DNA of 64,000 bases from Phoronis australis (Eukaryota; Animalia; Phoronida), in the NCBI GenBank assembly GCA_002633005.1, contig NMRA01000219.1:57236-121235 (forward strand). The letters run 5' to 3'. The translations under genes and the position numbers were made by a program. The notes beneath the pieces were generated by a model. The model had not been told where the DNA came from. It saw only the letters and a program-made list of their open reading frames with translations, and made no database searches. Of the stretch, positions 20,468 through 64,000 are shown piece after piece. Numbering within the stretch: the first letter of the stretch is position 1; the number at the start of each line of letters is the position of its first letter.

Positions 20468-23400
20468 TTGGCTGCGCCTGATTTTCTGTGCCCTTACGTG
20501 AGACGCCGTTTCACAAACATTTGCAATAGCGTGTGCTTATTGTGAGTAGGCCTACAACAAGATGACACTGGTGTGCAATGTGGTAGTGTCTCTTTGGCAA
20601 AAGTTTGTTGAAGTTATTCAATAATTTTGCAAATGTATATTGGTCATCCGATAAGTATCTTCAATTTAGACACCAACGGATTCACCAGGTAGTGGTTAAT
20701 TACAGAATTAAAATGTTTAATAGCGGTTGAGTCAAAATTCAACTATACGCTTTCGACCTTGCTTGAACTGTTGTCGTCATTTTAAGAAAGGATCCACACC
20801 CTAAACACGAACCCAATCAAATGGCATTGCATGATGTTTTGAACCCCCATGCAGTGCCCTCTTTGAAAACCATTGGTGTAAAACCCTTTGTTTTGTTTTT
20901 TAGCACGAGTAAATATGAAAACTCGTTGAATGGAGTTTCAACGGGAAAAAGACTAACCGTGCGAAGGCAATATTCCAATGTCATAACGTGTGGTTAGTCT
21001 TTTTTGCCCATGGTGGTCGCCCGTGATTGACAGGAGTATTGGATAGTTTCGACCTGTCTGTCAAGCTAATAATCGCAGCCAATCAGGTCAAGGAAACAGA
21101 TAAACGCAACGATAGTCCACCATCATTGTCTTACTAATATTGGTTTCTCACGAAAGCGTTGATGCGCTTGTGACTCTTGCAATGTAGATGAAAAGCATGT
21201 AATAGACTTCACGATCAGGCGAAATTACGCCTGCATAAACCGTAGACTACTATAGAGTATCTACTGATAAACAAACACCAAGTGAAAGAAATTCCCAACG
21301 TTTCACACTGCATTTCGCCCTTGCCCTTGATGTTTAGATGGCTGTAAACGAAATCGAACTTGGCCTTTCATCACTCTCATAAAATCGGTCTCACATGAAG
21401 TCTTGCCGTGAAAAGTTTCTATTTCCGTTACCAACGAGAACAGCGAAATCATGAAAGACCCAAGAAAACTTCAGAGTTTGGTAGAGGCCGGGGTTGGCCA
21501 ACTCTAAAATTGCGAATTCGAAAATGGCGAAAGTAGGTGCTGCCTTTGATTTTGGTTGGTAACACAAACAGGTTAGCCAACGAAGCAGGGTGCAATGCAG
21601 CTTTACAAGGATCATTGTGTGGATGATAGCGTGATTTACGGAAACGTGGCCTCTTAAACAACCCAAGACATATGACACTAGACCATCGGCGGGCACTAGG
21701 CTTTGAGTGCTCGTCAATAGGCTGGCGCAATATATGGATGGACTCAAGTACTTTGTATCGCGGATGTAGCATTCGTGCAACAGTCGTTCGCTTCTCTTAT
21801 GTCCTTTGTGATAATATAGTTCAGTATGGTTACAACTTCTTTTATTGAAATATGATTAAAACACATAGTTGAGAATCTGTTGCTGTAGTACCCTTGAAAA
21901 ATATCTCCGGCGCATTGGCTTTTCGTGTGGAACTTCGCAACGGTAACGTTGTGATGGTGGGTGTGACATGTCAATCAAGCTATTAATACCAACCAATCAG
22001 GGCGCAGAAAAATGTAAACGGCGCGGTTGCCTCCATTTTAGTCCCACAAATATGGGTTGTAAACGAAAGCGGCAAGACGGTCTTATACGATTGCAGGGTA
22101 CACTTAATTTGTAGATCAACGATTTACGTAGAACAAGCAAAGAAATGACTTGCGACCGGATATAAAAGCATGTAGCAGACCTTGTGATCGTGGGAATTTT
22201 TATGTTGGAGTAAATAAGTCTTAAGTAAAATAAATTCACATCAGTACATTTTTCCTCTCGCTGACAACATAAGACTCAGTAATGTATTCCCATCACTAGC
22301 GGTCATAAACAAAATTTACTGGTTGTCATTTCTATAACGAATAACGAGCCTGAGATGCATGTAGGTTTTACTACTACCAGAGTACTGTGCTGTTGAACAA
22401 CGTGCCTGAACTCAGGTGTGGAGCAAAGTAACCTTGCGATTAAGGCGTTGCCTGAAGGTCACTGGGCTCAACAGCTGGGGGGAAACCGAGAGTCACTGGC
22501 CTCGTTGATTATTGCAAAAAGAAAAGCACATCCACGTAAGAAACTCGAAGTGTTAAACTGTTCTCTGGGGTACTAAAATGGCGGGATCAAATTCTGTTCA
22601 GCTTAGCGCATTTTATTCATGAATCCTTGTCGCCAGTTATGTCGCTGTAATCGACCAGAACATTTCTTGGCTGCTTATAACTTCCTCAACACGTACATGT
22701 CTTAGTAAGTGCTGGATCAATCAGCCTAGGTGACGCCGAAACCTGGTGACAAACATGGAAATGCGGACCTGGTGTCGGAGAGGGGTGCTATCACGTTTTT
22801 TTCGCACTGAAGAAAACTTTCCTTCGCTTATGTTCACCTTTTTGAGGGTCCAACGGTGCGTCGGCGTTCCTTGTCAGCAAGTGCTTCCCTGTCAACCCCC
22901 ACCGCTACGCCACTTGAAAAATCGCATAATCATTTACACGGCTCCCCGCAATAAAATCGTTGAAGTTCACTATCATGTTTTGCCACTCATTAAGTACACG
23001 TACAGGTATCTGTTTCGTGATTACAGTAACACAAATCTTGCTTCAAGTTTCTTTGATATCTTAATCAATGTGGTCTAAAGTCAAGACTTCGTCGAAATGC
23101 AGCTTATCAGCTTCAATACTGCTACTAAGAAAACGTGTAGACATAAACTGTCTGCAAGTTAAGGAATTCTACTTCCCACACTTTGAACTGGCAGCTGGTG
23201 GTTTGAGTGCTTAATTACGAAACGTGCACCTCTCCGTTGTGTTGAGTCGCGTTCCGTCGTTTTGCATGGAAGCTCATTCTCTCAAGTTTCCAGCTTTCTT
23301 TGCATCGTATTATAAAACGATTGTTAACTTTTCCTGAGTGTTCCATTTAGAGTCTAAAATGGCTGTTACATTTCTGTGTCAGAGACAACGACGTAACGTC

Positions 23401-32600: not shown

Positions 32601-35598
32601 GAATGCGCCTTTCAGTGAATGCACCTTTCCATGACAGCGTTTTCCCGTCCAGTGACTTTACCAGACGTAGGGGGTTCTGAGCGTGTGATAATATCTAGCT
32701 TCTTTGTTTACTGCCAAACACACTCTTTTGTCTGTTTTGACAAACAATACCAGGCTTATTACAGACCACGTGTGAACACAGTCAAACTCAGAGTGAATTG
32801 GTGTATTGGAAAGAACAGATTGTCGTAACTTTGGTTGCAGTTGGGCGATTTTGGCGATTCAAAAGCTAAACATGGTCACCATTTGACGAAGATTTCAGAA
32901 ATGTTATTGGTTTATGTTCAAATATATTATAACTTAACTTTTATTTTTAACAGCACAGCTCAGTCAGGGCCGGTAGATATGATCTTATTGGAGATTAGAG
33001 AAAAAAGAGAGCTGGTCCTCCAACCATAAATGCCAGAATGGAGTTAATTAGTCGTGTAAGATATTGGCTACAGGGGTAAACTTCCCAACTTGTTGTTGGG
33101 CTATATAATCGAACAAGTTGGTAGAAACGCGGGGAACTCGGAAAACGCATGCGGAAAAAAGTTTCCGTGATAGCAGGACGTGTACGTGTTTAGCGGCTTT
33201 AACTTTTTCAATATCAAAATTTTCTTTACGTTTTTTTATTAAATAAACTATTCCTGTTACGGTATCTACGGTGTTCATAACGCTCAGGGAAGTTCCCATT
33301 TGATCGATAACCACTGCATTGAAACACCCGTGGGAGGTATATTCGGAATTTAAAAGTATGCTAAGGCGCATGGACATGACTTTTGGTCCCGGAGATGACT
33401 TCTACCAAATATTCGCTGTAAAATCAGAAAAAGTAAGAACGATCAATTAGCAATGCCGAAACTCAGTGAAACGTTCGACGACCCCGAGAGTGGAAATTTT
33501 AGTCAGACCATGTGGTACTAGGGATTGGAGAAAGCGCGTAGCCTAGACGGAATATAAAATTCATAAAGAAAAGAAAAGAAAAGGATTGTTGTTATGAAAA
33601 CGGTCCACAGTCTAGTCCTCCAATGCCGTGCTTTCGTCATTTCGCGGTTTCAATGTACATGTAGGCAATTTGATACGAGACCTAGTGTTTCTTGGGAGTA
33701 CTCGAGTCGAGTGCTTTCTTGACGGTAAGCCTGCGGCTTATAATTCTGTTCCTGGTTTACAGAGAGGTCAGTTACTGATATTTAAAACATAATAGGTCAG
33801 TGTAGTTTGCCAAGAGTTTTGGATTAAATTAGCCGGAGAAACGCTCCTTAATTTTAACACCCCTTTCACTCTGGGATGCAGCCATCCGTTTCATACAGTC
33901 TTGAACTGTTTAAAGTTATGAAATAACTAAATGCGATTTCCATGTTCAAGTTTGATAACACCGAACAGTAGCAGTTTAGTTGGCGTGGAGTGTTTTATCG
34001 GCATCCTGTTCCCTGTAATGACGATGGATTCGTTAATCAGCGAACCACGAACTCGGTACAAATCCTGTTCAGCATTTCTGCCGCTCAAGCTACTGTAGAG
34101 TACGTGTCGCCCGCGGATTACGCTCTTAAATTACGGGCATACTTCGGGATCGTAAATTGCGAGCTCAAATTTTACCCACGTCGAAACCACTGGTTTCAGA
34201 ATTCACAAATCAGCTATGTACAGTAGTGTGTTAGTAATAATCACCAAGATGGCGGGCGGGCAACTGAGCGAGACCAGGCGAATATTTTGTATTGGGTGTA
34301 GACAACTTTCAACCCTTCCTGTTGAACTGCTTATGCTAAACGTAATTAGATAGCAAGGTGTGTTTTCATTGAAAACCTCCGTCCAACCACGGTCACGGCG
34401 GTCACTCACGCTCCGCTCTCACCCGTAAACTAGTTAGGCCAAAAACACACTACAGTTGATGTTTTTTTTTTGAAAATTGAGTCGATGGTTCGGCAATTTT
34501 AGTTGCTCACTTTTTAAAAGAAAAAAGTCCACCCGGCACTAGCAAAAATGTTCTCAATTCTCGGCCTTACAATCTTTCCTCTGATACCGATGTACACAAA
34601 AATACGTAACATATGAAGCAAACGCCTGCGCACGTGCGATTTGACATTGAGCAATATTGCTCGCCTGTGGTCTAAAACGTTCAACTTGTCGCACCGTCGA
34701 TTTACGCTAGGCTTTTTACCACATATTAAAAACCCCTACATGCCTCATGCTGAGATTTCCTACGGCGGGTTTGTCCTGTTGATCAGAGCGACATCTAGTT
34801 TTGAGTTGAGTCATTCGAGATCATATTCCGGCAAAGCGATACGTCTGGATAAAGCCAAAAAAATCACTCTGAACTGTCATTCCGCGCATGGGCCTATTTT
34901 AAGAATTCCGGTAGTCGTTTTACCCACACTATTCGCGAGCAATGAATCGCGCGCGTGCGTACGTTTGGTTTATGAACTTTTGTGCAGGTCTGCACTTATT
35001 AGTGAAAGGAATGCGAAGCTGAGAATCGGGAAATTTTCATTTTTTTAATATCCGTTGTTTAGCAGCAAAAACCAGTCCGAATACATTAGAGGTGAATATC
35101 TTTTGTGCTCTGGGGGCTAGTGCTAGCCACGTTACGAGGAACATTGTATTTTCACTGCGGTGTTTTACCTTGGGCGTCGATTGCGGTACGCTCTTCTAAA
35201 AGTTTGTGTCCTTTGTTGTCAGATTTTTATAATGTACCCTCACGTTTTCATAATGGCAAAGATGTGTCTTTGTCCCAATTACCCTCTTTACTCGCTACAG
35301 CCCGATCTGTCTTTGGATTTAACGGTTACGCACGTTTAAAACACGGCGTGAAAAGTGTCTTGCCACGTCCACGGACCGTAATTACGGTGGTGTCACTTTT
35401 CCTCAAGTTCCAATAAAAACAACCAGGGAATATAACCCTTAGGAAGGTGTTTGCCAAATCTGCAATGTGTGTCATGACACTTGCAGCTACAATTTTTTAT
35501 GGAACGGACACGGGGCATTCTATTCTATAATTCAGACCACATTTGATGACGTTTTGGTTTATTTAATCAGTTGCATTTCTAATCTTTGTGTCTTTCAG

Positions 35599-36649
35599 GG
35601 CGGCTGAACACGTAGTTACCATAGCTACGGTGCTACTTGGGTTCAGCCTCTTAGTCATCGGAGATGTTCTGCGGGAGCCGTTTTTAACATTGGATAACTT
35701 CACTGTGATTGAAATAGCCTTCTGCATCAACATTGGCAAGTATTGCTACAAGATTCTACAGAATTCGTTTCTTTACCAGCATATGTCGCTGTACGCCATC
35801 CATCTTATTCATCATCTCGTGACTGTCACGTGCTTTTCGGTATTCGTCACGTACCACCAAAATACATTGCTCGGAGTTGTAGGGCTGACAGTTGAAATAT
35901 GCACGATCTGTGATGATGTGTCTAAAGTCATGAAAAAAGTGGGAATTGAAGTGCATGAGACGATATACACTGTCATCAGCGTGATTCATTGTGCGCTCAA
36001 TTTTATTTTCCGAGGACTTGTCCCTGTGTCGCTTCTCTCGTACGCTGTTGCTGTGCACAGTCCGTTTCAAATGCACTTTATACCGCTGTCTTTCTTTTTC
36101 CTCGCTGTGATATTTTATTCGGTCATTAACATGTGGATGATCAAAAATTCCGTTGATAACGTGAGAAAATCTGTGTCCGCGCGAAAGGAGTGCCTGTTGA
36201 GGAAAGCCCTCGATATTGCGATACCACACAGTAACAGAGCAAATTATTTAGCTACTGTACCACAAGACAGATGCGAAAAGCTTTATAAAAACAATTTTCA
36301 TTATTTAAAACCTTATTCGAATTTGAATATTGCTTCGAATGAACCGCAGCCACCAAATGTTCAACAAACAGACGTGGCAAAAGTCAAGAAAGTTCGATGG
36401 AGCGACCTCGTGTCACCAGCAGACGAGAAGTCCGACTACGTTACGTGCAAATATGAAAGAGGAGGTTCTATATCATCGACTGAGAGTTATACGTCTCCAA
36501 ACTTAGTGATTCCACACTGCGTGAACAGTAATGCTGGTGTTGCACTATCGTTTGCTCCCTCAAGGAGTGCGGTGACAGACAGCGTAGCCGGCGTGACAGT
36601 TAATAGCCACGTGTCACCTGACGTAATGTTGCAAACGACAGCTGTTTAA
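35599..36649 (+). CDS. TLC-domain membrane protein (TLCD/CLN8-like), exon 2
   Basis: TCTTTCAG acceptor; ~350 open codons with several TM segments and TLC hallmarks HLIHH, VEICT and FIFRG; ATTAAA at 36704. Confidence 0.88.
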
Positions 36650-47973: not shown

Positions 47974-48572
47974 CTGAAAAGGGAAATTAGTAAGAGTAGG
48001 TTGATGTGTGGATTTATGTCTTTGTCTTTGTCATCTAGGACCGAAAGCAAGCATGAATAACCTGATTACGTCACGAAGTCATGCGCAAAATCTTCAGACT
48101 CACGTCACCATGCGACATATACAGAAGTTATTTCTTTTCAGTAACATCAAGGTGCCCACGTTTCCTGTCATCAGCAGGAGCTGAATGTTTTGAAGTCCCA
48201 TGCAGCCGAAGTCGCAAGTAGATTTTGTTGTTTTAAACAGATTTTTGGGTTACATGTATATGAATCGGAAATACGATTGTTACGATTCCCAAAGACGTCA
48301 TTCGGTGAGTAAACAGTTTCAATTCAACATAAGGTTCACTGAACCAGTTCAATCAACCAATATTGAGATTACAGTAAAAAAAGGTTTATAGGAATGGCGT
48401 CATTGTGAAATTTTGGACCCAGTGAGACGGCGTATGTGTTCTTATTTCCGGGTTCAAATTGCGTCATTTACTTCCATGATACGTCATCACTAAACATCTG
48501 AATAAGATTTCCCACGTGTAAAAGTTAAGACGCAACTAGCCGTTTTTCAATAGATAACGAATTTCTGTAATA

Positions 48573-49350
48573 CAGTGGCGGATCTAGGATATCACAAGGG
48601 GGGCCCAACATTTTGTCCGGCTGTAAGCATTTGCGCAAACTGATCCACGATTGTAGATGCGCGTAGCACCGAATGGGGGGAGGTCGCCCAGGAAATTTTT
48701 CTGTTTTTACCTCTAAAAATCAAGCATTTTCCTTGATTCCTGAAGTATTATCCAAGAAAAAAGGCAAAAAAAAACGGAGAACGTGTCAAACAGGAAAAAC
48801 TGCAAGTACCAAAGACTTGAACTCACGACCTGGCGGATAGAGCGCACGTGCGTTTCCACTACACCACGATTTAACTACTAATCTCATACTAAAAGACCTA
48901 CTTGGTTATGGTCCACAGCGTTTGCGCGCGAAACCTACTTCTTTTTGTAATGCTTATTACACGTTTTATATTTTGTGCCCTCAATTCTTAACAAATTTGT
49001 CGTATTTGAAATAGTCTTTAAATGCCCAAAAGACCAAATCCATTTTTCGTGTTGGCCAATGACAGGATTGCTTTGGAAATCGTCTTAAGATAAGGTTTGA
49101 CAAAGAGAGTATTGCGAGTTTCTGAATGATTCACTAAGGCTTCGATTAAAATTCACATCTTACCAGCAGCTTCTGTTTTTTCATCGTCACTCAGGTTCCA
49201 TTTTCTTTAAAAAAATGAAGTAAATTTTCTTCATTGCACAGTGGAGCAGACGACGGAAACGGAGTCGTAGTGCCCAGCGCCACCGCCNNNNNNNNNNNNN
49301 NNNNNNNNNNNNNNNNNNNNNNNNNNNNCCCCCCCCTAAATCCGCCTATG
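48573..49350. mobile_element. ~780-bp CAG-ended element related to the MITE family (contains an N-gap)
   Basis: CAGTGGCGGATCTAG...CTAAATCCGCCTATG; TSD TAATA on both sides. Confidence 0.7.
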
Positions 49351-50589
49351 TAATAATTATAATAATCACCTCAAATACGACTGCTTGCTTAATCACCAGC
49401 TTGCAAACCCGTGATTCCAAGTTACTCGGGTATGACCATCGGTCTCAACAATCCAAGGTGACATATTTTAATAATTTATAAAAATTATTTATGTCGCTAC
49501 TGACATCGCTATTTCGAAATTAAATAGGGATAGTGTGAAGTAAATTACTTTTTACCTGCCCGCATACTTGTGCAAAATGAGAGATGTTATAGTAAGGATA
49601 AGCTTAAAAGGCAATCTCATCGTATTCATGCAGTCAATTTTAGGACAGTCTACTGTTTTTACAATAAACAGAGCTTACATATGAAACAATTTCTTATTAG
49701 CCCGTACATTTGACAATAAGGTTTCACTTAATGAACTGTGTGGAAATCAAAATCACGACTATTACGATCGTTTTGGTCAAGGGAGGACTAACGACTTTTG
49801 ATGAAATAGGCCCCGAATGCAATAAATTTATTGCTCCACGGGTTATACATTGAAACAACAAAGTCTCGTACAAATTGAACTTTTTTGCAGCTAACCTAAA
49901 AGCATTCCTTGGGGATAAACATACAGAAACAGATATTCCAAATCTTGAGAACCTGAAAATTCATGTAAGGCTAATTGGACTCGTTCGACCTATGTGGCTC
50001 CTCTCGAACAAGTATATTAAATGATCGGAGACTGGCTGGACATCTAGCCATTGCTTTTCCTAGGGTATCAATCTGCATAAACTAAGTACTAAGAGTTGCA
50101 TATCCCACGAAACGTCTACTGTTCAACAACAAAACCTTTGAATTTTGTGTGAAACTCGTTAGTGAACTTTTCAATACGGCGTGTTTCAGATTATGTGAGA
50201 CCTAAAAATGTAGAATTCAACTCCGCAAGATTATATATTTTCTGAAAGTAGAAATGCCGTATAATTTGATTTTTGACTTCTAACCAATCTGCCAATAATA
50301 AGGTTACGTGACCATGCTTTTATGAAAATTGAGCAAAAAAGATACATTCATATCAAAACAACACGATCAACAACTTAGTCCAATTTCGTGTAATATACAC
50401 GATCAAGATATAATCTCAAAAGCACTCGTAAAGTTTTCTGAATTATCATTTCGTTTTCGTTTCATGCAACATTATTTTTTTCATTTTTTTTCATAAAAGT
50501 CGTATATAGTCTCTCCTGCAAAAGTAGACCATTGTAAAAAGATTCCCAAAGAGTTCTGGAAAATAGGTTCGTAATTGGTCTCTAGAGGC

Positions 50590-50736: not shown

Positions 50737-51004
50737 CGTAAAGAGTTGTGGAGAACTGTGTATAAAGCATATTAGTTTTTGAATGTTTCATGTGAATCCT
50801 ATCAGCAATCTCTGAGATACGATGTTCCAAAGTCGGCTAAAATTGGACATGGTCCTAAATAACTTTAAAATTAAATACTTTTCCAAAGAGATGAATATTT
50901 TTGCGTCTCTATTTCCCGACGCAACCTGACTTATTCTCTTTCGATTTAGCGATTTTGACTTAAAATATGGCACACATGTTACCGCGCGTTCCTTTCGCAC
51001 TCAC

Positions 51005-51222
51005 CTGTTCGATCACAAAAACTTTGTAGTGTAGTTTTTGCCGTTGTAGCTTTGGATGTAGCTGCTTCATTAATATTTGCAAATGCTCCTTCCTGTTTCG
51101 ATATGGAATGATTATGGCTACACGTTGAGACGCAACACAGTCACTCGGTTTCCATTCGCCACCGAGAACGTTCAGGGATTTATTTAAGCCCCTGAGGTCC
51201 TTTATTACGGGACGTCTTCCTT
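51005..51222 (-). CDS. GT7 beta-1,4-GalNAc/galactosyltransferase, first recognisable catalytic exon
   Basis: GGEWKPSDCVASQRVAIIIPYRNRKEHL...LHPKLQRQKLHYKVFVIEQ|GTGAGT is the classic GT7 N-terminal catalytic motif. Upstream TM/stem exons not resolved. Confidence 0.95.
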
Positions 51223-52732
51223 CTGCAAGAATAGTAAAATATCTCTAGTACGGCAAGTCGATCTGGGAAGCCAGCGTGTTCTTTTGAGAACGAGTGCTTA
51301 GCAATCATTGCTGTAACGTGTACACGTGAATCCAGGAGTCGTTGAAAGAGCACATTCAGATAATAGTACAATGGTGCAACCCAACACGTTGCTTTGAGAA
51401 TGCGTGCATTGCACTGTTTTATACCTGTGCCTTTTGACCCTATCTTGCCCTGTGACAAAACGCCACCTTGAGTGGAAACATGATGAACGACACACGGAAT
51501 TCCGTGTGTGTGGGCATCAATGCGCATGCTTGGTGGGAAATTTATCGATCACATGACCACCACTTGCCCACGCCTTCAATGCACTGTACTTTTTGGGGTC
51601 GGGGTTCTCTTGATTTTGTTCACTTCAATGGCTGCTCGTTTTAATAAATTGCAAATATTCAACTCAAAGGTGGTTGCCATACTACGTAATAGTAAACTGA
51701 AAGGGGTTTGCCAAATTTCAACCGATGGTAATGACTGAATGTTATGACTTCGGTTTCATTACTTTAGCCAGTGAGAAGCCACGATAAACAGTATACCACA
51801 GTGCTACCTTTCGAAGCACTGTGAGTTGTAAACCTCGCTTTACAATTCACGCGCGAATGCAGAAGTCGTTGCTATAACATGCTGAGGTTACACACGGTGA
51901 TTCTCCCGAACAGGCCACAAACTTTTTTTCAGTAGAGGCAGGAACTTAGTTTCAAATTTATTTTAACTATTGAATTTGTATGTAAGTTGATGTTGAACGT
52001 TTTTTAATGCAAGTGTTTTCAGCGGCTTCAGCCTTTTTCCCGACGTTCGTTATATTTAGTCCAGTCAACAAGGATTGCCTAGTTGAGCTGAAAAGATCTA
52101 AGTCTAATTGAAGTAAAGGCTCAAGCACTTTTACAGTAGGTGCTTGAAATGTACACCGTAAGCATCTAAGTAAAACTCGACACGCCTTTCCAAACTGAAA
52201 AACACGTGCTGCTCTGCATCCGGCGAGCGCGCGAAAACAAAAATAATGTGCAAAGTTTCAGGTCAGTAGCCGCTCAATTAGATATGTTAGCCTATTTCGG
52301 GAAAATCCCCTTGTAGTACAATGGCCGTCAAAAACAAAGAATCTAGATTGTCATCTATTGTGGATATAGTCTAATACCAGAGGTGGAACAAACAGCCACG
52401 ATGAGAAGGATTTGTGATTCGCGTGTGCGTTCACTTGCCTTGAACAATAACGACTGCATTGCACTCTTATCAGCAATCCACTCACATGAACGAGTGCAAT
52501 GTACGCGATCCGAAAGAAATATTTTGGCATTCCATAATCGTTGTGGAAAACCAATGACAACGTCAGGTAGACCTTGGCGAGATCTACTCACAAAGCAAGT
52601 TTCTCTAAGATCCATCGAAGGGAGTCGGAGCTATAGTTTTGAAAACGGATAAATTGTAAACTATGATCACCACGGCGCCATCTTGCGTCCGATTTCAGAA
52701 CAAAGTGACTAGGTCTGATCAATTGACGAAGC

Positions 52733-52878
52733 GCGGATCCAGGATTTTGAGTTACTTTGAGTTAGGGGGGCAGAGGATTTTGCCCTTCAGAAACTCACAC
52801 GCCCGAAATGCCAAATGGAATCTGGGAGAATTTTAGGGTGGGCCATGGCCCCTTTGGCCCCGCTCTAAATCCGCCACT
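52733..52878 (+). mobile_element. Copy of the CAG-ended MITE family (left end trimmed)
   Basis: Matches 518-710. Confidence 0.8.
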
Positions 52879-52888
52879 ATTGTGGTTA

Positions 52889-53057
52889 CAGTGGCGGATT
52901 TAGAGGGGTAGAGGGGGGCCAAGGGGGCCATGGACCCCCTACAATTCTCCCAGATTCCATTTGGCAGTACGGGCGTGCGAATGTCTGACGGGCAAAATCC
53001 TGGCTCATACTCTGTCCTGCCCCCCGCCCCTAACTCAAAATTCTAGATCTGCCCCTG
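52889..53057 (-). mobile_element. Copy of the CAG-ended MITE family
   Basis: CAGTGGCGGATTTAG...GATCTGCCCCTG; perfect TSD GGTTA. Confidence 0.88.
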
Positions 53058-53495
53058 GGTTAGTCAAGCAAACAGAATATACGCAAAATTCACAGAGACG
53101 GGAACTTCGTATACGGTCTTTATTTCTCGACAAAATAGTGCCAGAGCACAGTTCCACTTGAAGTACACGACAGCCGGCCCAAGCATTGTCGCTCACTGCA
53201 ACACATATGATTAAGTTGGTATGAGCTTGGTAAATCGAGATTTGCAGTTTCTGCTATATTTTTCTTTTACACAATGGTAACTCACAACTTCGTGATACGT
53301 ATTAAAATGCACGCAAATTAAATTGTTTCCGAAAATTTAATGAACCGGGATTTGCACATCGATGCTACTAATAAAAATCCATTTAGCTCAGTTAGTATTA
53401 ATTCATCCTGTTTATGTAGTATGAATGTCCAGTCTCTACATCTGAAGATCAGGACAAAACGAAAGATGCTCAGTAACGTCATACATGTAGAACAA

Positions 53496-54048: not shown

Positions 54049-54691
54049 GTTTTATCCAAGGTCAGTAAAAGACTGTCGTAGCTTCAATTTTAATGTGAAA
54101 TCATTGACGTGACTGGCGAAGGCTGTATATAAGTTCGATCTAAAGCTACATTTTGCTGTGTTTAGCTGGCTACAAAATGAAAATCGAATTAGGTCTTTTA
54201 CTGCCTTTAATCGACAATGCATGCATGTTCCATTTTCCAAATCGCAGTTCTTGAGCAGTTGAAATGCTGGTGGCTTTGATGCTCTAGTTGTAACGACATT
54301 TCTTAAACCAGGCCTCAGTTCTGTAGATTTAATCCGTTTTTGGCCATAAACATGGCTTGCACGGTATGAAGCGTAATCAAACAGGCCTCGTATGCTTAAT
54401 CAAAACCTTGACCAGCAGGTCGGGTCCATTCTTTGACAATAGGGGGCGCTTGAAATTTCTCAGGTTGCTCTTGTGCGGCACTATACGAAAGCGATAGTGG
54501 CAATAGAACTTCCTTTCCATGGGGACCAAATGAAGTTTAATAAATATAAACATACACTATGTTTCATCAGAATGTACGACTCGTGATCTGTAGATACGGT
54601 ACGCAACGACATAAGCTGCTGTCGTCCCCAAACATAAAGCCTCATTCCAAGTAATATTATCTAAATGACTGAAACTCTATGTCATCATACA

Positions 54692-54697
54692 TTTATT
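54692..54697 (-). terminator. Candidate polyadenylation signal of the TSP1-TM-MTBD gene
   Basis: AATAAA on the minus strand ~50 nt after the stop at 54745. Confidence 0.5.
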
Positions 54698-54744
54698 TTA
54701 CAAATAAGACACCAAAAGTGTGAGTGAACGTCCGTGCATTGTCC

Positions 54745-56468
54745 TTACACTATATCAAAATAGTCCCACCTTGCTTCAGATGACAAGGCGCTGCTCTCAG
54801 AAGAATACACGGACTGGCCACTGGACTGGATATTTCTGTCCTTTTTCTTTCTCGTGCGCCCTTTTGAATGATGCTCTCTCAGCGCTTTAGCAGACGCCAA
54901 GAGGTCAGCCTGCCTCTTCCCTATAGCTGGTGTGGGCCTGTCATTCACTTGCAAAAGGCATTCCTCCGCCACTCCTATCGTCCACTGATGCAAGAATTGG
55001 GGGCCGGCACTAAGTCCCTTCACATCGTTTTCGGTGTATTTGTCGATAATATCTAGGACTCGCGATGCAATCTCTGGTGCTAAGTACGCAACTTTGAACT
55101 CTTTAATTCGTTTGAATAATCCAGGGTAGTCTTGTGACCACACCGTGCAGCACAATTGTCTACAAGCAGCCCAGTCGTATGTAGTAGTCTCGGCGTCACC
55201 AAGGATCAGCAAGGCGGCTATCACGACGTCGTGGATAATTCTTGGTGGCCGATCATACTCTCGAAGTTCGCCCAGTACAGCTCTGTCTAAGCTGAGAATT
55301 GCCTTTTTGAGCTTCTGAAATCTTTCCAAAGTTCCAAGCAGCTGTTTCGCTTTTTTTAGATCCTCTATTAACCTTACTGATACGTTCGCCCTTTCAGCGT
55401 CATGAATGGCCCTCTGCAATGGTTTGATTTTCCTTAAATATATCGCTCGCTCCAATCTTTTCTCGCAGATGTGAATTTCCAATTTCCTCTTTGCTTCTTC
55501 TAGAAGTCGTTGATCTGCTTGCACAGTGCCTTTCACGTCATGCAGAAAGGTCTCATACAATTGTATGCTGTCTTTTAGCTGCTTCGTATCTAATTTTTCT
55601 ACGGCATCGTGAAGGTCATTTTTGAGCTTTTCATGCTGTTCTTCGTTGTTACGGAGCGAGATAATTGACTCACATCTCTCCAATAGTTCACAATCAACTA
55701 AGACATACCCATCGTGGTCTTGACAAAAGTCCTCGTATGATTTCAGAGCTGTTGAGAGCTCTATAATGTTGGTAACATCCTTTGAGCAAGCTTCCTCCAA
55801 CTTTTCTTTCAGTTGTTCGTAATCTTCTGAAACTCGCCGTCCGTGAGCTTGTTCGGAAAGGAAACGCTCAGCCCTCTGCACAATTATTTTTTGTTTCGCA
55901 GTCAACCCCATTCCTGTCACGTAAATAAAATCGTCCAGTCCTGCAAGAATCCCTTTGATTGCCCCCTCTTCTCGATCCGCAATGGCCTCTAGGAGTTCGT
56001 TTAATAATTTCTTTACGTAGTTCTCTCGGCGCAACGTTGTCCGCATTTCGAACCACGTGGTGAGAGCTTCTCCTTGATCTATCAGTTTTCTGTCTGGGAT
56101 TGTAATAGGACCAGTAACCTGACAGAACTTGTTGTAGTGTGCCAGATAGATTTTCATATTCAGTTCGTCTTTGTTTGCAACGGCTCTCCTCAAGCCAAAC
56201 CTTATTTGTCCATGAATTCGTACCAAGTTCTGCAGTAAGATCTCCACTGGAGTGGGTGGTTTTGGTACACCTCCTCGTAGTCTGTCTTCCAAAGATGATA
56301 TCATGTGCAGGCTGCTATCGGACGGTATGATTACACGACCCGGCTCTGTTCCGTACTGTATTCTATATTCAATAAAAGTACGCCTGCGGCGACAGAAGAC
56401 GCACAATAGAATGGCAAGAAAAATTATCATGGTACTGATCGGTATGGCGATGAACATGGGCCAGTCCT
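54745..56468 (-). CDS. Uncharacterised single-pass membrane protein, last exon: TM + helical repeats + dynein MTBD-like domain
   Basis: 1724-nt open exon with CGTTTCAG acceptor; TM MFIAIPISTMIIFLAILLCVFC then RRRR; C-terminal AILSLDRAVLGELREYDRPP...LLILG...DW...LSAGPQFLHQW. Confidence 0.9.
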
Positions 56469-57788
56469 CTGAAACGATAAGAGCGGGGAAACACTAATTG
56501 GACTTTAAAAAATCATTATTTAAATTGTGGATGTATTTATAACGACTGACTCACAACCCGGTGAATAATCGCTATCACTTTAAGACTGATGTAAATTAAT
56601 TATGTAACTTTTCATGTAAATATTTACTTTGTGAAGGTTTTCTTTGGAGATTGACTCTGTTTACAAGCCGTTAATTTGTCTGGTTTGTAGCTAACGTCCA
56701 AAATATCATGTCACACTAATAATGGTCAAATTTGTTTCATGAACATGTCCGCCAGTGTTTTTAGGTTGATATGTATTCGAATTCTGTGAAAAAAACGTCT
56801 TGACTTAGACCACTGAGGTCCACTGTTGTTAAATCAGTTTTTCTTAAAGGACGTTTTCGGCTTTACGATGGAAAACACATTCTTTTGAATTATTGTTGAA
56901 TGCGATATACTTTTTGGAATTACTATCTTTAATCAAAACCATACAATAACAAAATCCGATGTTTTGTAATTTATTGCAAATGTGCCAGTTCTTGCCATTG
57001 TCTCTCAGTCGTGATATTCGTTGAAATCAAGGTCGGTAACTACTAGACAAACGAGCTTAAAATGTTACCCCAGCAGCGTGAAAGCGTTAGACTGCGACCG
57101 TTGGAATTAACTGCAGATTCCACGATTCCGGATCAAGCTGGTCAAGTCAGAAAATATATTTTTTTTCGTGGATAGTACCCTTTTTAGCACTGTCTGCACT
57201 TTCCGAGTTCTTGCGTACGACTTTTTAGTTCGAAAAGAAATGCCGACACACTTTTCTACGCACTCCGATTAGTTGTAGAAGACAGTGAAAAAGTAGTACA
57301 GTATAGAAAGGGTTTCACTTGGATTAAATTGTGTTATTTTTATCTGTTTTTACATTTATCTTTTTCATATGTTTATTCTTACTTAAGTAACACGATAATG
57401 CAAAAAGTGTATGGTTTTCATAAAGGCAAGCATTTCAGGCACAAATCAGTCAGTTTCCTGTCTGAATCACAAAATTAAAAGGAGTCCGTCTGCATTGAAT
57501 TTGACAAATTGATTTTTTGTAAAAATACATTATCAAGATTGTACTATTAAAAAAATCTGCTTTCAGGTGTTCAGTACACGCGAGACCATACATCCTTGCT
57601 AAATAGGGCTAAGCTGCGAAGCCGTGAAACTTTGAGTGACAGGTCATTAAAGGCCAACTGTTTGAACCTTGTCTCAAATTCCAACAAATTGTCATTTATT
57701 TTCAAGTCCAGACTTCACTTCTAAACGAGTAAGGAACACGTCGCGACCAGTTTTGTAACGGTGACTGGTCTAGATCAGCAACTCTTAC

Positions 57789-57938
57789 CGCTGTCCTCGT
57801 AGAGCAGTGTCTGCGCTTCAACGCTGCAAGGAGATAGCTGACTCTGGACTCTTGTACAACCGTCATCCGGGTTACACAAGCTGTATCTATGCTTCACGCC
57901 TTGCCTGCACGGGCCCCACTCACCCCACGTTGTAATGG
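57789..57938 (-). CDS. Same gene, TSP1-like ectodomain exon
   Basis: TTTCTTTTCCAG|ITTWGEWGPCRQGVKHRYSLCNPDDGC...SPC...EDS-G|GTAAGA; 150 nt, phase 1-1, in frame with 56468; WxxWxxC...GxxxR...C...C pattern. Confidence 0.82.
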
Positions 57939-58259
57939 CTGGAAAAGAAAATCAACTCCAAATTTTCACCTAATCTCGAACAATAGTGTTTAATCTGCGG
58001 TGCCGCGAGATGTTAGCCAAGGGAAAACTTTACTGAAATCTGCAGCTGTATCTTAGCAGTTGAGTAGGTTTCAGCTGTAAAACCGTTCGCTTTTAACAAT
58101 GTAAATCAGATTATACTTTTTTCTGCAGAATGAGCGTTGGTGGCTGCAACCTTTAAGTAAAACAATAGCATAGGAGGAATGTATCAAACCTAGTGGAATA
58201 TTTTGGACACAAAGACGTTTATATTTGGTGCATTTACCATGTCCAGCAAGTAAACTTAC

Positions 58260-58350
58260 GCTTGGTCATTCCAGTTGTTTCCTCTGGCTTTGCACTCGTG
58301 AGCGCCGGTGCTTGAAGGAGTCTGTCAGCCAATGAGCTTATTGGCGACAT
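58260..58350 (-). CDS. Possible upstream coding exon of the same gene
   Basis: Consensus GTAAGT donor below 58260; the phase-compatible frame gives MSPISSLADRLLQAPALTSAKPEETTGMTK(P), with an in-frame stop at 58405-58407. True 5' end uncertain; no signal peptide seen. Confidence 0.4.
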
Positions 58351-60769
58351 CTTTCTGTGGCGCAACAGTGGGAGACCGTGTGTGCACCAGGTGTTGGAAT
58401 GATGTCAACCAAACCAGACTAAACCAGCTCAAGTTATCTGTTCGAGAATACAATGCCGTTGACACTGTAATAAGACGGTTTTACCATAATGACAGCCAGA
58501 CTTCAATGATACTAAACATTCGGTTCTGTAAAACAATTCACGTAGCTAGTTCTAAAACATACATTTTAAAAGGATTTGGGAAGATGAGTACACTACGCCA
58601 TTAACTACTTTCATTTTATAGACTTATGTTTCTCCATCGAACTATGACCGAAGGCTTCGATCTCAATTTTACAAAAAAGCACCTCTTTTAACTAACCGAA
58701 TAAATAGGTCTTATCTGGTATAAAACGTAAACGGTTACCCTTACCTATGAATCAATCTAATCTAATCAATCAATCAAATCTAACCAGTAATCGAAAGTTG
58801 TAAAGACGTCGACAAAGTACGAAATGTCTTTGAAAGCGTAGTTGTCACTACCAACGGCAGTTGAACACGTAGTGACGACTTTTCTGACAGTGGATGACGT
58901 CATTGTTTTTTAGACGTTGATGCGTAAAGTTACGCACATAATTGTTACAAATACATAAAGTTTTCGCTTTTGACCTCTAAATATCTTGAACTTTCATTAA
59001 GATCGAATTTTTGCAAAGGTAAGGTTAGTCCAATATTATCTATTTAGTCATCCTAAGCATTAGTTCAAGCTTAGTCGGCAAATAAGTTTTACAGTGTAAT
59101 TCAAGGGGAAGCTCCATTTCACCTCATTGATATGCATACTCGACTAATTATCGGAACCCCAGGCTTAGAATTTTGCGTGATTTTCTTATTTTTGATCGAA
59201 ATCTAGTCACAAGGACCGATGAGTGAAAAAATAGATTGTTTTCATTTTCCGTCCCTTCCAATTTCTAATTCTCTTGCATGAACATGTGTGACAAGTGTTT
59301 TTGACAGAGAATTAAACGTGGCCTCTTCAACAACCCCGGAAACTTTCTTCATCTTAACACGACCCGCACCACTGGTCACCAGCAAGAGTTTTAAGCGCTC
59401 TCAATTGGTGGCAGTGCAGGTACGGCTTTCCATCAACATGTGCATGAAATAAGTCACGAGAGCACGTAGGTCAAGTCTTATCACTTATAATACAATATAC
59501 CAAACAATTGCAGTTACCTTCGGTTCCTGTATGAATCGACCAGAGTCTGTGAATTTGAAACCTGGCGTGTCCATTGAGCTGTCACAATCTGGACTCACGA
59601 CGTGGCGTCGTGGATATACGCAACATATCACTTCTCTTCCTTGGGACCCACTTTGATAACTAAGCTCCATGTGGTAATAGTCGAGTTTCAGGGAAATGTC
59701 ATAAAAGTAACACCGTAGAGAGTATTTGTTGCAGAACGTTTGGAAAGGACTTTAGTAACTTTTGCTTCACTATCAAGTGCGTTGGCTGAATACGTCTGTC
59801 AGAATTATCCATTTTATGGTATACCTTCAGCAGCAGTGCGTTCCGTCGGTAGACCAACTTTCTAGCGCGAAAAGCGACCTTGTGCAAGATCATACAAAAC
59901 CACGCGTGGGAAACTGAAGGCGAGTGTTTTGCGACTATGCTCAAGACCTTACTGGCACTCCTGGACAGATACAGAAATGCTTCGCCTTTTGCATGTCAAA
60001 ACTCGTCAACACTAAACTTTTATCAGATATAGCTATCGGTGCCTTCGAGGTTTTACTCGCTAGTTAAATAAATATTATTTAAGTATTAAATTATTTTATG
60101 TATGCTATACTGCTTCGTCCTCATTATTATATTGTTTGGATTCTCGGGTCAGTGACCCTCTTTGTTCTACGATTATTGGTTTAATTGTACCACGTGATCT
60201 ATTTGTCTTGTTGCAACACCGGGTCATCGTCCATAATTCTCTCCAATTTTCGAATTTTCAGTCAACTGTCTCCCACCTTTACAGCTCAACATATTGTATA
60301 ACTTTAGTATTTATCGATATCTGTAGTAGTTTAGTTTGTCATAATATATATGACCTTTTATCTCACCTACTCGTGTTGTTTCACTGTAAACTAGCTTCGG
60401 TATCGCTTCGCAGTTAGCGCACATAAAATTGTTTTTTTAGTTATTCAGAAACATGAAGCATTGAAAACTGTTATGTTTTTAACGCTAAGATATTTCTTTA
60501 CTTTTAAGTAAGATGATACGACAATAACAAACGTAAAAGTTTGCTATCGTCGTAGCACATATAGCGACTATAAAGCCGCCTTCCATCACAAAAACATTTT
60601 TTTCAATATCGCTGCATTTGACAACGCCTATTTCAAGTCAGATGTCCCGTTTAGCCATGTATAAGTCTTCGTAAGCCTTCCATTCTTCTTTTCTCTAGTT
60701 CATAATTACATTTTTGTGTTTAAAGTTACCTTACATATCGGTTAAATTTACCATATCTTGTAAATTATG

Positions 60770-60840
60770 TCCTCCCTCCCCTCCCCCCCTTCTCTCTCCC
60801 TCCCTCCCTTCCTTCCTTCCTTTCTCTCTCGCTTCCCCTC
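60770..60840. repeat. Low-complexity C/T tract
   Basis: Almost pure polypyrimidine (CCCT/CCTT/CT runs). Confidence 0.9.
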
Positions 60841-61724
60841 ACCTTTTAGTCAGATAACATCTCCAGCTACCTGTACCTTCATGCGCTGTAGCCCTTTTCA
60901 AACATTAATTGTTTCGTTTACGAGTGGACATACCTGACTGAAATGTCATATAATACGTGAACTACCAAATGAGGGTTGCATCTGGTTCGAGAAAGGTGTG
61001 TCAAAGGAGGCGGTATCTCAGGCAGGTGTTTAAATAGAGTATATAATTCTTCGTCCATGGACTGGTGGAAAATTTTTTCAATTCCAAACAGACATTAAAC
61101 CTTCCACTCATCTTGAAAGTCGCAGTCATCAATTGAACTTCGATTGCTAATTGTGCACAGAATTTGTCTGAGCTTGTCAGTGAGCTACAAGAAAACTAGG
61201 AAAGCTAGTTAACTTTCTGAAATATAATCAGGCCGTTGATAGTAACAATCTTTATTTCAGTACTCTGTTCGTCATCAGCACTTAATGAATTGTTCTAGGT
61301 TCAATCAGAATTGAATTGCATTTTCAAAAAACTGTTTCTTTTTAAAGGTTTTTTTGTTTTTCCTTAATTTCGAAAAATTTAAATCATTATGTATCTTGCT
61401 TTTGTGCGAAGTAAAAAATGTCAGACCCTTTTACTTTCACTTCAAACTAGCGTTTGGTCATCGAGGGCTCATAGCAATTCACCTGCTATCGATATCGATA
61501 CTACTGAACCATGCATTGGCCAGGGTTGAACGCTCGGTGTATGATATTCCAGTATAATAGTTTGTGTATGTAGGCCTCCGGTCACTACCTCAAAATTCTC
61601 ATTATTATGTGTAACACATGTAGCGATCATCTTTACAACCTTCGAGAATTTCAATGAAAAGTGCTAAATACAGTCATCTAAGACTAAACATTCTACAAAA
61701 GGGATCTCCGATTTTCAGCTTTAA

Positions 61725-64000
61725 AGGGACATTTGCGCCAAAAATAAAAAAAACATTATTACACAAATTAGCAGTACATGTAGCTCGGAGTCGGGCTCAC
61801 TAGCTGATCCAATCCCCATCCGTAGGTAACAGACTAGTTGCATATGGCACCGATTTTGGTTTCAGCGAATACGGTCTGACTGACCGACAACGGTGAGAAT
61901 TGTCGACTTGCAATAAAATCACAAAACACAACTGATTTTGTCGTTTTATGATTTTAATGAAAATTAGTAACTTCGAAAAGTCTATCCCATTTGACAACAA
62001 TCCCCACAGATCGTTCTTCGGCCCTAAAATCCGTAATGTTCCTTTGATGAGGAAATTTGCAGTGTTGCGTAATATNACTTGACTACTGCGCCATCTATAC
62101 ATCGACGGTAAAGCTTAAATACCCGTGACTGCGTGTGGGAAATTGCGATTGCGTGAGCTGAAGTCGATATTTTCAAAGTACAATTACACCACTGTTTAAG
62201 GTTGCAAATTGAGTTTTTTTGATATCCTTCTATAGAAAAAGCTTTAATCTCTCTGATGAAATCATCTATTTCCTTTTAAACGTAACTTAAGTCCTAAAAT
62301 TTGTCCGGGGAAGGAGGCCAAAAACGGCGGTTTAGCTAGTTGTCCCTTCCTGGTTATCTCTTCCTGGTAATATTCATTTGCGTATTGATTTCATGATCTT
62401 TCAGAAAGCATTTGTAACATGTTTGAGACAAACAACAGGCAAATAAAAGTCAGATCAACGTACAGCATACACACCAACAAACATGACGTTTGCCCTTAGC
62501 TAGTTTTAGTTCCATAAGTTGCAGTTGCCTGTGTTCTAGCAATGGTGAGCACTAATTGGTTGACAAGACTTATTAACGTAATCCTGTCGCTTATCAAGAC
62601 TGAGGTTTAAAGAATGCCACCCTATTTAATTAGTCTTTTTTACCGTCCTAATCGGTCTATATTCACATCGCCTCTTATACGATCGACCTCACCTTGCCGA
62701 GAGGTGTCGCGTTAACCTGTGAGGAAGGTGAGAAACGACGCAGCGACGTCAATGGTTCGTCTGCAGAGTGAATGCCGCTATATAGTTCCCGCTTGCCCGA
62801 ACTATGAAGCTGCGAAGAAAGCGAGAGCCCGAAATACATGGGAAGTGGCTCGCGGTTGTAAAGAAGATAAAAGGTACGCTGCAAGTATGAGGCCGTGAAA
62901 CATCTCCGTGTCTGTGGCCGGCATTTCATGGACATTGATTTCTGACAAATTCCGGCTTACCAAAGAACTATCCATACGTTCCGTTGCCTGTGCATGTTCA
63001 CGGCGCCTCTCTAGTATTTCTTGGTCAATGTATTCCGGTTCGAACTGATAGCCTGTGAAACCTAAAGATCCGACCCGTGAAGTCTTCGTCGGATGAGCTC
63101 TTGACTAAGTCGGGATTAGCGCCGGGCGAGTTGCCATGTAGACGTGCGTTCTGTTTCAAAATGAATTATTCTCGTCCTAACCAATGCTTATATAAAACTG
63201 AAGTCTCATTAGATACAATTTGTAATGTCTTTGCAGTACTCGTGAATGCAAATGTTGAGAAGCCAGCAATGAATAAACCACTGCGTTACCGGCTTTAGAT
63301 GACGGCAACAAAGGTAATTGACCGGGCACCGAGGCAGTGTGAGGGCATGCTAATTCAGTGCAGACAGAAAGCTGTTGTGAAACAATTACTCGATTTTATA
63401 TGCTATGGTCACATGTTAGGGGAATCTTTATTCAGAATACAAATACAATATTAAAGTCATTGTTACTGTACAATCTTTGCCATGACGGTCTGTGGAAGTG
63501 GAACCCGACTTCGCGGCCCCCAATAATTTTTCAGTTTTGTGGCAAATTCACATAAATAATTACGTGCACATTATTTCTTTGGCTCACTATTATAGTCTTT
63601 TCGTGACTGGAGGTTTAGTTTCCAACTCAAGCTGGTTTATATTCGTGCCAGTCCCGGCGGCCGCGACGGGCCTGATCAGGTTTTAGCCACTGGCCGGGAT
63701 AACAAGCGTTTTGTGTGTTTAGAACTCAAAAATCCCAAGTACAAACAACACAGATCTTGGTTCTCCTGTCTGTATTTCACGGAAAAACTTATGCTTCGAA
63801 TTTATCTCCGAACAGACCCCAAACTCCTGCTATGGACCTTCGTAAATTGGCCTGCCGAACTTTGTAGGCTACGGTCTGTCCAAATACCAATAAATCCGTA
63901 ACAGCGAAATAAAACAACACGTATTTATAAGAACTCGGTGTATTTTTAAGGGTTTTACATTGATACAAAATAGGTTGTTTTTGGGTGGCGTTCTCCTTTA
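61725..64000 (+). mobile_element. Probable Kolobok-like DNA transposon (left end only) with a degenerate THAP domain
   Basis: TTAA|AGGGACATT start; at 62773-62942 YIVPAC...KWLAVVKK, then frameshifted KHLRVCGRHFMDIDF (THAP RVCxxHF). Right TIR not in the window, so extent is uncertain. Confidence 0.45.

Follow-up and report, generated by a model that had tools for sequence, protein, structure and literature searches.

The 64,000-nucleotide (nt) stretch of DNA analyzed here (the window; Phoronis australis contig NMRA01000219.1, positions 57,236 to 121,235 of the forward strand) is of animal type with introns, and its minus strand carries a gene for a predicted membrane protein whose tail, judged from its sequence, is a homolog of the dynein microtubule-binding domain (MTBD) without the motor. 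In window coordinates, and all on the minus strand, the large last coding exon (54745..56468) holds the predicted transmembrane (TM) helix and the entire cytoplasmic part without introns, in an open reading frame (ORF; 56466-54748) of 573 stop-free residues, and a candidate polyadenylation signal, AATAAA (54692..54697), lies 47 nt past the stop. A predicted GT..AG intron of 1320 nt (56469..57788), with a GTAAGA donor and a pyrimidine-rich CAG acceptor, separates the large exon from a 150-nt exon (57789..57938) of phase 1-1 with AG/GT ends, which would join it in frame and would encode a degenerate TSP1-like module (WxxWxxC, four Cys) and a short acidic linker. Beyond a second GT..AG intron (57939..58259), predicted from its splice-site sequences, lies a candidate 5' exon (58260..58525) that is mostly untranslated and has a CAG acceptor and, at 58259, a GTAAGT donor, the only nearby phase-1 donor with a long open frame. 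The likely start is the ATG at 58350, which would yield about 30 residues rich in Ser, Thr and Pro. Runs of N are absent within the gene.

Transcription was evaluated in three raw-read RNA runs (X1-X3) and one contig run (X4) with the same species label, 18-19% of each raw-read run being sampled. Over 54408-58679, first mates of the X1 and X2 reads fell on the plus strand only (at most 0.05 on the minus strand), and X3 and X4 gave nothing. Since the GT..AG joint of a plus-strand neighbor (59016 to 63235) was seen only by first mates on the minus strand, a first mate on the plus strand means minus-strand RNA. Depth in two bins lying fully within the large exon was 9.6-12.1 in X1 and 4.2-4.5 in X2 (0 in X3), and 0-0.84 in both inner bins of the 1320-nt intron. 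The depth implied on the 150-nt exon from its bin was 12.4 (X1) and 6.9 (X2), and the bin of the 5' exon, with depths of 3.83 and 1.71, implies about 7.7 and 3.4 over its 266 nt. The stranded depth fits use of the TSP1-like exon, and we infer from it the splicing of 57789 to 56468.

Numbered along the 573-residue frame, the protein contains a single 19-residue window of strong hydrophobicity (residues 6-24; Kyte-Doolittle 2.79, with the next best elsewhere at 1.46). This corresponds to a predicted TM helix (residues 4-25; 56380..56457) with acidic residues before it and C-V-F-C and four Arg after it, so that the topology proposed from the sequence alone, one TM helix with a positive-inside CVFCRRRR, is the one that we also predict: a single-pass protein with a cytoplasmic C-terminus. 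The two Cys at the inner end of the helix may be palmitoylated. Next come approximately four three-helix repeats of about 60 residues (residues 153-384; 55315..56010), helical in the model, of which a repeat hidden Markov model (HMM) found the last clearly (E 1e-13 at 334-384) and those at 153, 218 and 280 weakly (0.009-0.38); relative P0151 has five clear copies. The MTBD-like domain with short stalk stubs occupies residues 372-503 (55353-54958), which is where the stretch first noticed as MTBD-like is placed, and the protein ends 70 residues past it. The 40 residues that follow the domain (506-545) have a net charge of +8, and 54832..54930 comprises the basic stretch together with a subfamily tail motif (residues 513-523) found in 8 of 29 clade members and in 0 of 78 others, the pattern having been composed after viewing the sequences. 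At the very C-terminus (54748-54768), an Asp-x-Val triplet follows a Tyr-based motif, and this ending might serve as a class III PDZ ligand or for sorting.

The central claim of the sequence-only reading, that the tail resembles the dynein stalk head and comes with no AAA+ motifs, was confirmed, at the level of the family more clearly than by the single protein. Searched alone, the protein has no match to Pfam MT (PF12777) and only a weak dynein match in the PDB (E 0.09), axonemal dyneins making up five of its six PDB matches. We built a family profile of 85 sequences from query residues 262-515 and 84 shorter relatives (up to about 740 residues), 24 of the 85 matching PF12777 at E<=0.1 and relative P0007 lying above the cut-off. 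This profile finds the yeast dynein MTBD in the PDB at E 4e-12, and its 60 PDB rows are headed by 50 that belong to dynein-type heavy chains or MTBD constructs; one chain among these, 4,583 residues long, is labeled otherwise. Comparison of HMMs (HH) with a dynein heavy chain gave a probability of 95.5 over 110 columns, and 25 of 30 ESM Atlas matches were in PF12777-carrying clusters; ESM Atlas returned no usable match for residues 1-270.

The modeled fold agrees with this assignment. The AlphaFold model of the domain (pLDDT 92.8) has the six-helix fold of dynein MTBDs and superimposes on three isolated dynein MTBDs with a root-mean-square deviation (rmsd) of 2.4-2.6 over 123-134 residues; its flanking helices, at approximately 25 and 22 residues, fall short of dynein's long antiparallel coiled-coil stalk. 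In a VIA-align comparison over 48,161 chains, dynein stalk/MTBD structures ranked first (Z 15.8, 15.8, 13.9, 13.2, and 11.1), with Z 13.2 and rmsd 2.6 over 123 residues for 6l4p_B and Z 12.7 and rmsd 2.4 over 125 residues for 6kio_M, placing the dynein MTBDs at Z 12-16. Foldseek gave no match at E<=0.001, its top rows nonetheless being dyneins (probability 1.00). A single-sequence fold prediction of the domain had pLDDT under 50 and was set aside. Neither AAA+ nor any other dynein part was found in the protein (Pfam) or in the window, which two dynein queries match at the MTBD only. A profile built without the query has the domain as its sole significant match (E 4e-56) among 2270 reading-frame pieces of the window, and identity is up to 39% to motor-less relatives (E down to 4e-33) vs. 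19-26% to dyneins. Elsewhere in the window, a plus-strand stretch (22549-22758) has a weak tblastn similarity to residues 363-432 (E 0.28), stops inside, and was missed by the family profile; it is probably due to chance.

A HMMER search over 1.84 billion representatives identified 278 relatives at E<=0.001, and all 150 that were listed match within residues 200-544. We took a domain census of the 69 listed relatives of at least 400 residues (from the 150 of 278 listed). Ig-like_KY was found in 46 of the 69, often with a transglutaminase-like core, which upholds the link to KY/hillarin-like proteins drawn in the sequence-only reading, and the remaining long relatives have EF-hand, VWA, CARD, CD20-like, CLCA or EGF domains; no AAA family was among the Pfam matches listed for the 69. 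The domain lies close to the end of these proteins (median distance to the C-terminus 16 residues, 66 proteins). A myristoylation-like Met-Gly start is present in 28 of the 69, and seven (P0010, P0053, P0056, P0084, P0144, P0151, and P0153) have clear TM helices, three weak hydrophobic flags on KY-type relatives being left out of this count. These numbers indicate that a membrane anchor combined with a terminal MTBD recurs, and they overturn the earlier suggestion that such a tail does not occur on transmembrane proteins. P0144 (XP_035689228.1, an amphioxus CLCA-like protein) combines a signal peptide, a CLCA N-terminal domain, VWA, a TM helix, a spacer and the MTBD-like domain, and P0153 (XP_077867321.1, from a hemichordate) has EGF repeats followed by a TM helix, a spacer and the MTBD-like domain. 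These two proteins, annotated merely as CLCA-like and uncharacterized, are better model systems for function than the Phoronis gene.

An organism was named for 17 of the 28 relatives looked up, and all are invertebrate animals, from sponges to tunicates. An exact-sequence look-up with two in-exon start variants matched nothing, word-indexed searches came back empty both for the protein, at near length, and for the domain in longer proteins, and a profile search among longer proteins retrieved 4 dyneins only. Scans of metagenome contigs found no related locus; the alignment contains no stretch conserved enough to be scanned by. In the full-text literature searched, outside which most subscription journals lie, we found no paper describing the motor-less family, none on the tail of KY/hillarin-like proteins, and none joining dynein, microtubule-binding domain and hillarin; the "MTBD-like" literature concerns, in the passages found, an unrelated motif in TTLL11 (PMC12366701). 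Taken together, the protein is not unique and represents a new architecture within an apparently undescribed, widespread family.

Compared with known systems, the Phoronis protein is neither a dynein nor a KY protein, though it may function as dynein's grip does. With the dynein heavy-chain MTBD (the middle of PF12777; 6KIO, 6RZB, 6L4P, 3ERR) it shares homologous sequence, the six-helix fold with two flanking helices, and the helix-1 contacts; it differs in having no AAA+ ring, linker or long stalk, in lying below the Pfam cut-off, and in being a predicted membrane protein. KY/hillarin-like proteins (PF01841 and PF23265; e.g., KAK3098481.1, ESO03382.1) share the tail of helical repeats and MTBD-like domain at 24-38% identity, and many start with Met-Gly, likely a membrane anchor of their own. 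The Phoronis protein has the tail alone in common with them, without the transglutaminase-like core or Ig-like_KY and with a TM helix and a TSP1-like exon. The TM members (Branchiostoma XP_035689228.1, XP_066272931.1, which is CD20-like, and CAH1240778.1; Saccoglossus XP_077867321.1) are built in the same order, from an outer or membrane part through a TM helix and a helical spacer to a terminal MTBD-like domain; their ectodomains are other ones, none is named by its source for the MTBD-like domain, and their domains lie elsewhere in the tree described below, which suggests separate fusions. Linkers already known to join membranes to microtubules, CLIMP-63 and the NompC ankyrin tether among them, are alike in the proposed static linking and differ in their binding elements, which are unrelated to a motor's track-binding domain.

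The MTBD-like fold also appears in four non-dynein chains, namely 7jtk_C (residues 444-595; radial spoke 1, Z 11.0), 9fqr_Xl (1180-1494; bovine sperm axoneme, Z 10.3), 9ya2_L (1207-1457; Toxoplasma intraconoidal microtubule, Z 9.5) and 9e5c_2e (115-423; trypanosome axoneme, Z 8.1). Their Z scores are middling for helical folds, they are absent from the rows of the profile search, they show no sign of a membrane span, and they belong to axonemes or the conoid. Judged by length and numbering, 9ya2_L is probably Toxoplasma ICMAP2, a microtubule binder whose resolved globular domain, according to passages of its description, makes up 10% of 1,678 residues and sits between protofilaments with an 8-nm repeat (PMC12819142); the likeness in fold may already be pointed out there, in Extended Data Fig. 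3 on domain assignments. A likeness of these chains to the MTBD is not named in the passages found, which do not describe the RSP2 fold (PMC12399478, PMC10774353) or identify 9fqr_Xl (PMC11779644, on the bovine axoneme).

The TSP1-like exon was assessed in its own right. It contains the WxxW-then-Cys motif of TSP1 (PF00090), has four Cys vs. six in a TSP1 repeat, and matched no TSP1 structure in a structure comparison. In TSP1 pairing, the two missing Cys may form a single disulfide pair. Because WxxWxxC occurs twice in the window vs. 0.78 times expected by chance, the motif carries weight only in combination with position, phase and RNA depth.

As to origin, 29 of the 38 listed matches of at most 180 residues stop at 420-434, and in 29 of the 31 short matches that could be placed the residue next to the equivalent of 430 is Val, as expected where a GT donor has been translated through. 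This pattern points to a common family intron at that position, which the Phoronis gene does not have. A quick tree of 112 domains, with four DNAH6-like dyneins as outgroup and, its search being unfinished, with 55 of 109 forks open, splits the family from these dyneins with support of 100. The query groups there with soluble and KY-type members in a clade of 30 rows (support 96), separately from the remaining seven TM members and on a branch of 1.01 compared to a median of 0.51. As the simplest account, we infer a retrocopy or intron loss followed by gain of the TM helix and of the symmetric TSP1-like exon. A soluble family gene would have been copied after splicing and reinserted, or would have lost its introns, and the TM helix and phase 1-1 exon would have been acquired independently of the other TM members.

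We tentatively propose, with confidence just short of even, that the gene encodes a passive, ATP-independent tether between membrane and microtubules that acts through a motor-less MTBD homolog. The single TM helix would insert the protein N-out without a signal peptide, the small outer TSP1-like module would bind a neighboring cell or the matrix, and the four helical repeats would serve as a spacer replacing dynein's stalk. The MTBD would dock at the alpha/beta-tubulin interface, dynein's footprint, through helix 1 and with help from the basic tail; as the helix-6 Arg is missing, its hold would probably be weaker than dynein's. The membrane would be held against microtubules without ATP use or movement. 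Many of the invertebrate relatives, themselves scarcely studied, may do likewise. For any adhesion, ciliary or mechanosensory role we found nothing for or against.

The contacts to tubulin bear most directly on this proposal. Passages of one study give six salt bridges for yeast dynein, made by K3117, E3122 and R3124 in helix 1, R3152 and R3159 in helix 3, and R3201 in helix 6, and note that Dictyostelium dynein also employs mid-helix residues of helix 3 (PMC7042235); those of another describe the Dictyostelium equivalents of the helix-1 Glu and helix-6 Arg as critical, with alpha-tubulin R403 as the partner of the Glu (PMC4298687). We counted the corresponding positions by hand on the profile-yeast alignment and tabulated them over 107 full-length relatives and four dyneins. 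All three helix-1 residues are kept, as R395, E400 and R402. Position 395 is Lys or Arg in 21 of the 107 relatives and Gln in 51, position 402 is Lys or Arg in 80, and E400 is acidic in all 107, no other charged column ranking among the 13 most conserved. This invariant Glu argues for a retained tubulin contact.

A number of observations weigh against a tether of this kind. In helix 3, R3152 and R3159 are replaced by Ala433 and Cys440, with Arg436 lying mid-helix between them. The W-x3-R residue named in the sequence-only reading, Lys in all four dyneins, has changed to Gln in 74 of the 107 relatives, and the yeast helix-3 salt bridges are at other positions. In helix 6, R3201 corresponds to Gly484, a position that is Asp or Glu in 44 and Lys or Arg in 14 of the 107 relatives and Lys in all four dyneins; Lys483 adjoins it, and 483 or 484 is basic in 67 of 107. 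The net charge of the domain is -2, vs. a family median of +2 and +2 to +4 in the four dyneins. Both the altered helix 6 and the charge speak for binding that is weaker than, or different from, dynein's, and the conservation counts are inflated at columns common to the query because the relatives were chosen by similarity to it. On the outer side, TSP_1 is the sole Pfam family match of the 150-nt exon and is sub-threshold (14.3 bits vs. a cut-off of 21.6, E 0.046), no signal peptide was found in the candidate N-terminus from ATG 58350, and the 57789/56468 joint is absent among the 15 of 76 splice joints listed, which leaves the junction with fitting stranded depth and no listed joint. Residues 31-262 had no significant match among the fetched relatives (best E 0.15), and a protein with the full order of TSP1, TM helix and MTBD, for which an architecture search had been suggested, was not found among the listed relatives, none of which showed a TSP1 domain in Pfam matches; the shorter order of TM helix and MTBD is the one seen in the 7 of 69. 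The unfinished state of the tree and its small outgroup, four DNAH6-like dyneins only, belong here as well.

These same contact positions feed the possibility, which we hold to be rather unlikely, that the MTBD fold has been repurposed as a membrane-adaptor module binding a non-tubulin partner. The helix-6 and helix-3 contacts lie off dynein's positions, the domain is slightly acidic, and a similar fold exists in chains that are not full dyneins. An example is 7jtk_C (rmsd 3.7 over 145), which we take to be RSP2. The long C-terminal part of RSP2 extends to the spoke-head surface in the passages found (PMC10774353), and the dynein MTBD itself binds light chain 1, as the title of 6l4p states. 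Against such an adaptor stand the near-invariant acidic residue, which is the tubulin-facing one in dynein, and the fact that 9ya2_L, a non-dynein chain with a similar fold, is probably itself part of a microtubule binder. A further, quite improbable option is a membrane-bound mimic that regulates motors, either by occupying the dynein/kinesin footprint or by titrating MTBD-binding regulators, and so damps local traffic. Passages of the Dictyostelium work report that the alpha-tubulin residues used by dynein and kinesin overlap, so that a static MTBD would compete (PMC4298687), and the helix-1 contacts are kept; the low transcript depth makes competition by numbers unlikely except locally, and nothing direct was found.

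That the locus is a young chimeric retrogene, transcribed and with little or no function, which owes its architecture to having landed by chance behind a TSP1-like exon, seems improbable to us. The cytoplasmic part is intronless, no orthologue with the same architecture was found among the 1.84 billion representatives or the metagenome contigs, expression is low and absent from X3, and the branch in the quick tree is long. However, 573 codons have stayed open and the family core residues are kept (as in the E 4e-56 match) despite a closest relative only 39% identical in the domain, a combination that is hard to obtain without purifying selection. We give almost no credence to the view that the locus is an assembly artefact or a fragment broken off a dynein heavy-chain gene. 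The likeness to dynein's stalk tip speaks for it, but dynein queries match the window at the MTBD alone, the domain has much closer kin among motor-less proteins than among dyneins, the gene is free of N runs, and RNA covers it.

Beyond the tether proposed for Phoronis, a more speculative and distinctly unlikely generalization is that a large invertebrate family of motor-less grips has been repeatedly fused to membrane anchors or receptors of TSP1, EGF or CLCA type and links the outside to microtubules much as integrins do to actin, with tension on the ectodomain shifting the stalk stubs and switching affinity. The dynein MTBD has so far been regarded solely as belonging to the motor. The family, in which at least 278 sequence clusters carry it without the motor, often behind a membrane anchor, would add a further class to the microtubule-associated proteins of sponges, flatworms, molluscs, annelids, hemichordates, amphioxus and tunicates, and KY/hillarin-like proteins would gain a cytoskeletal partner. 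Because helix 1 is kept and helix 6 changed, nature has here varied the dynein contacts in a way that can tell which of them count. Should microtubule binding turn out to be lacking, the domain would remain a clear example of a piece of a motor put to new use as an adaptor.

The plus-strand neighbor is transcribed with a 4218-nt GT..AG intron (59016-63235), supported by 24 and 36 reads in two runs. Its 5' end stands head to head with the MTBD-protein gene, whose strand has reads extending into 58680-59213; the two 5' ends may therefore overlap or share a promoter. A hydrophobic frame near 60501 with a weak donor was considered as a signal-peptide exon and rejected, having both-strand reads and lying inside the neighbor's intron. 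Three regions (48534-49601, 52806-53339, and 61884-64000) are deeply covered by reads from both strands, which show many differences and loose ends, as is typical of repeated elements. Farther away, a 360-codon ORF on the plus strand (35567-36649) has a weak match to TLC (TRAM_LAG1_CLN8; E 0.004, below cut-off), and an exon-sized frame on the minus strand (50960-51244) resembles an exon of the beta-1,4-galactosyltransferase family.

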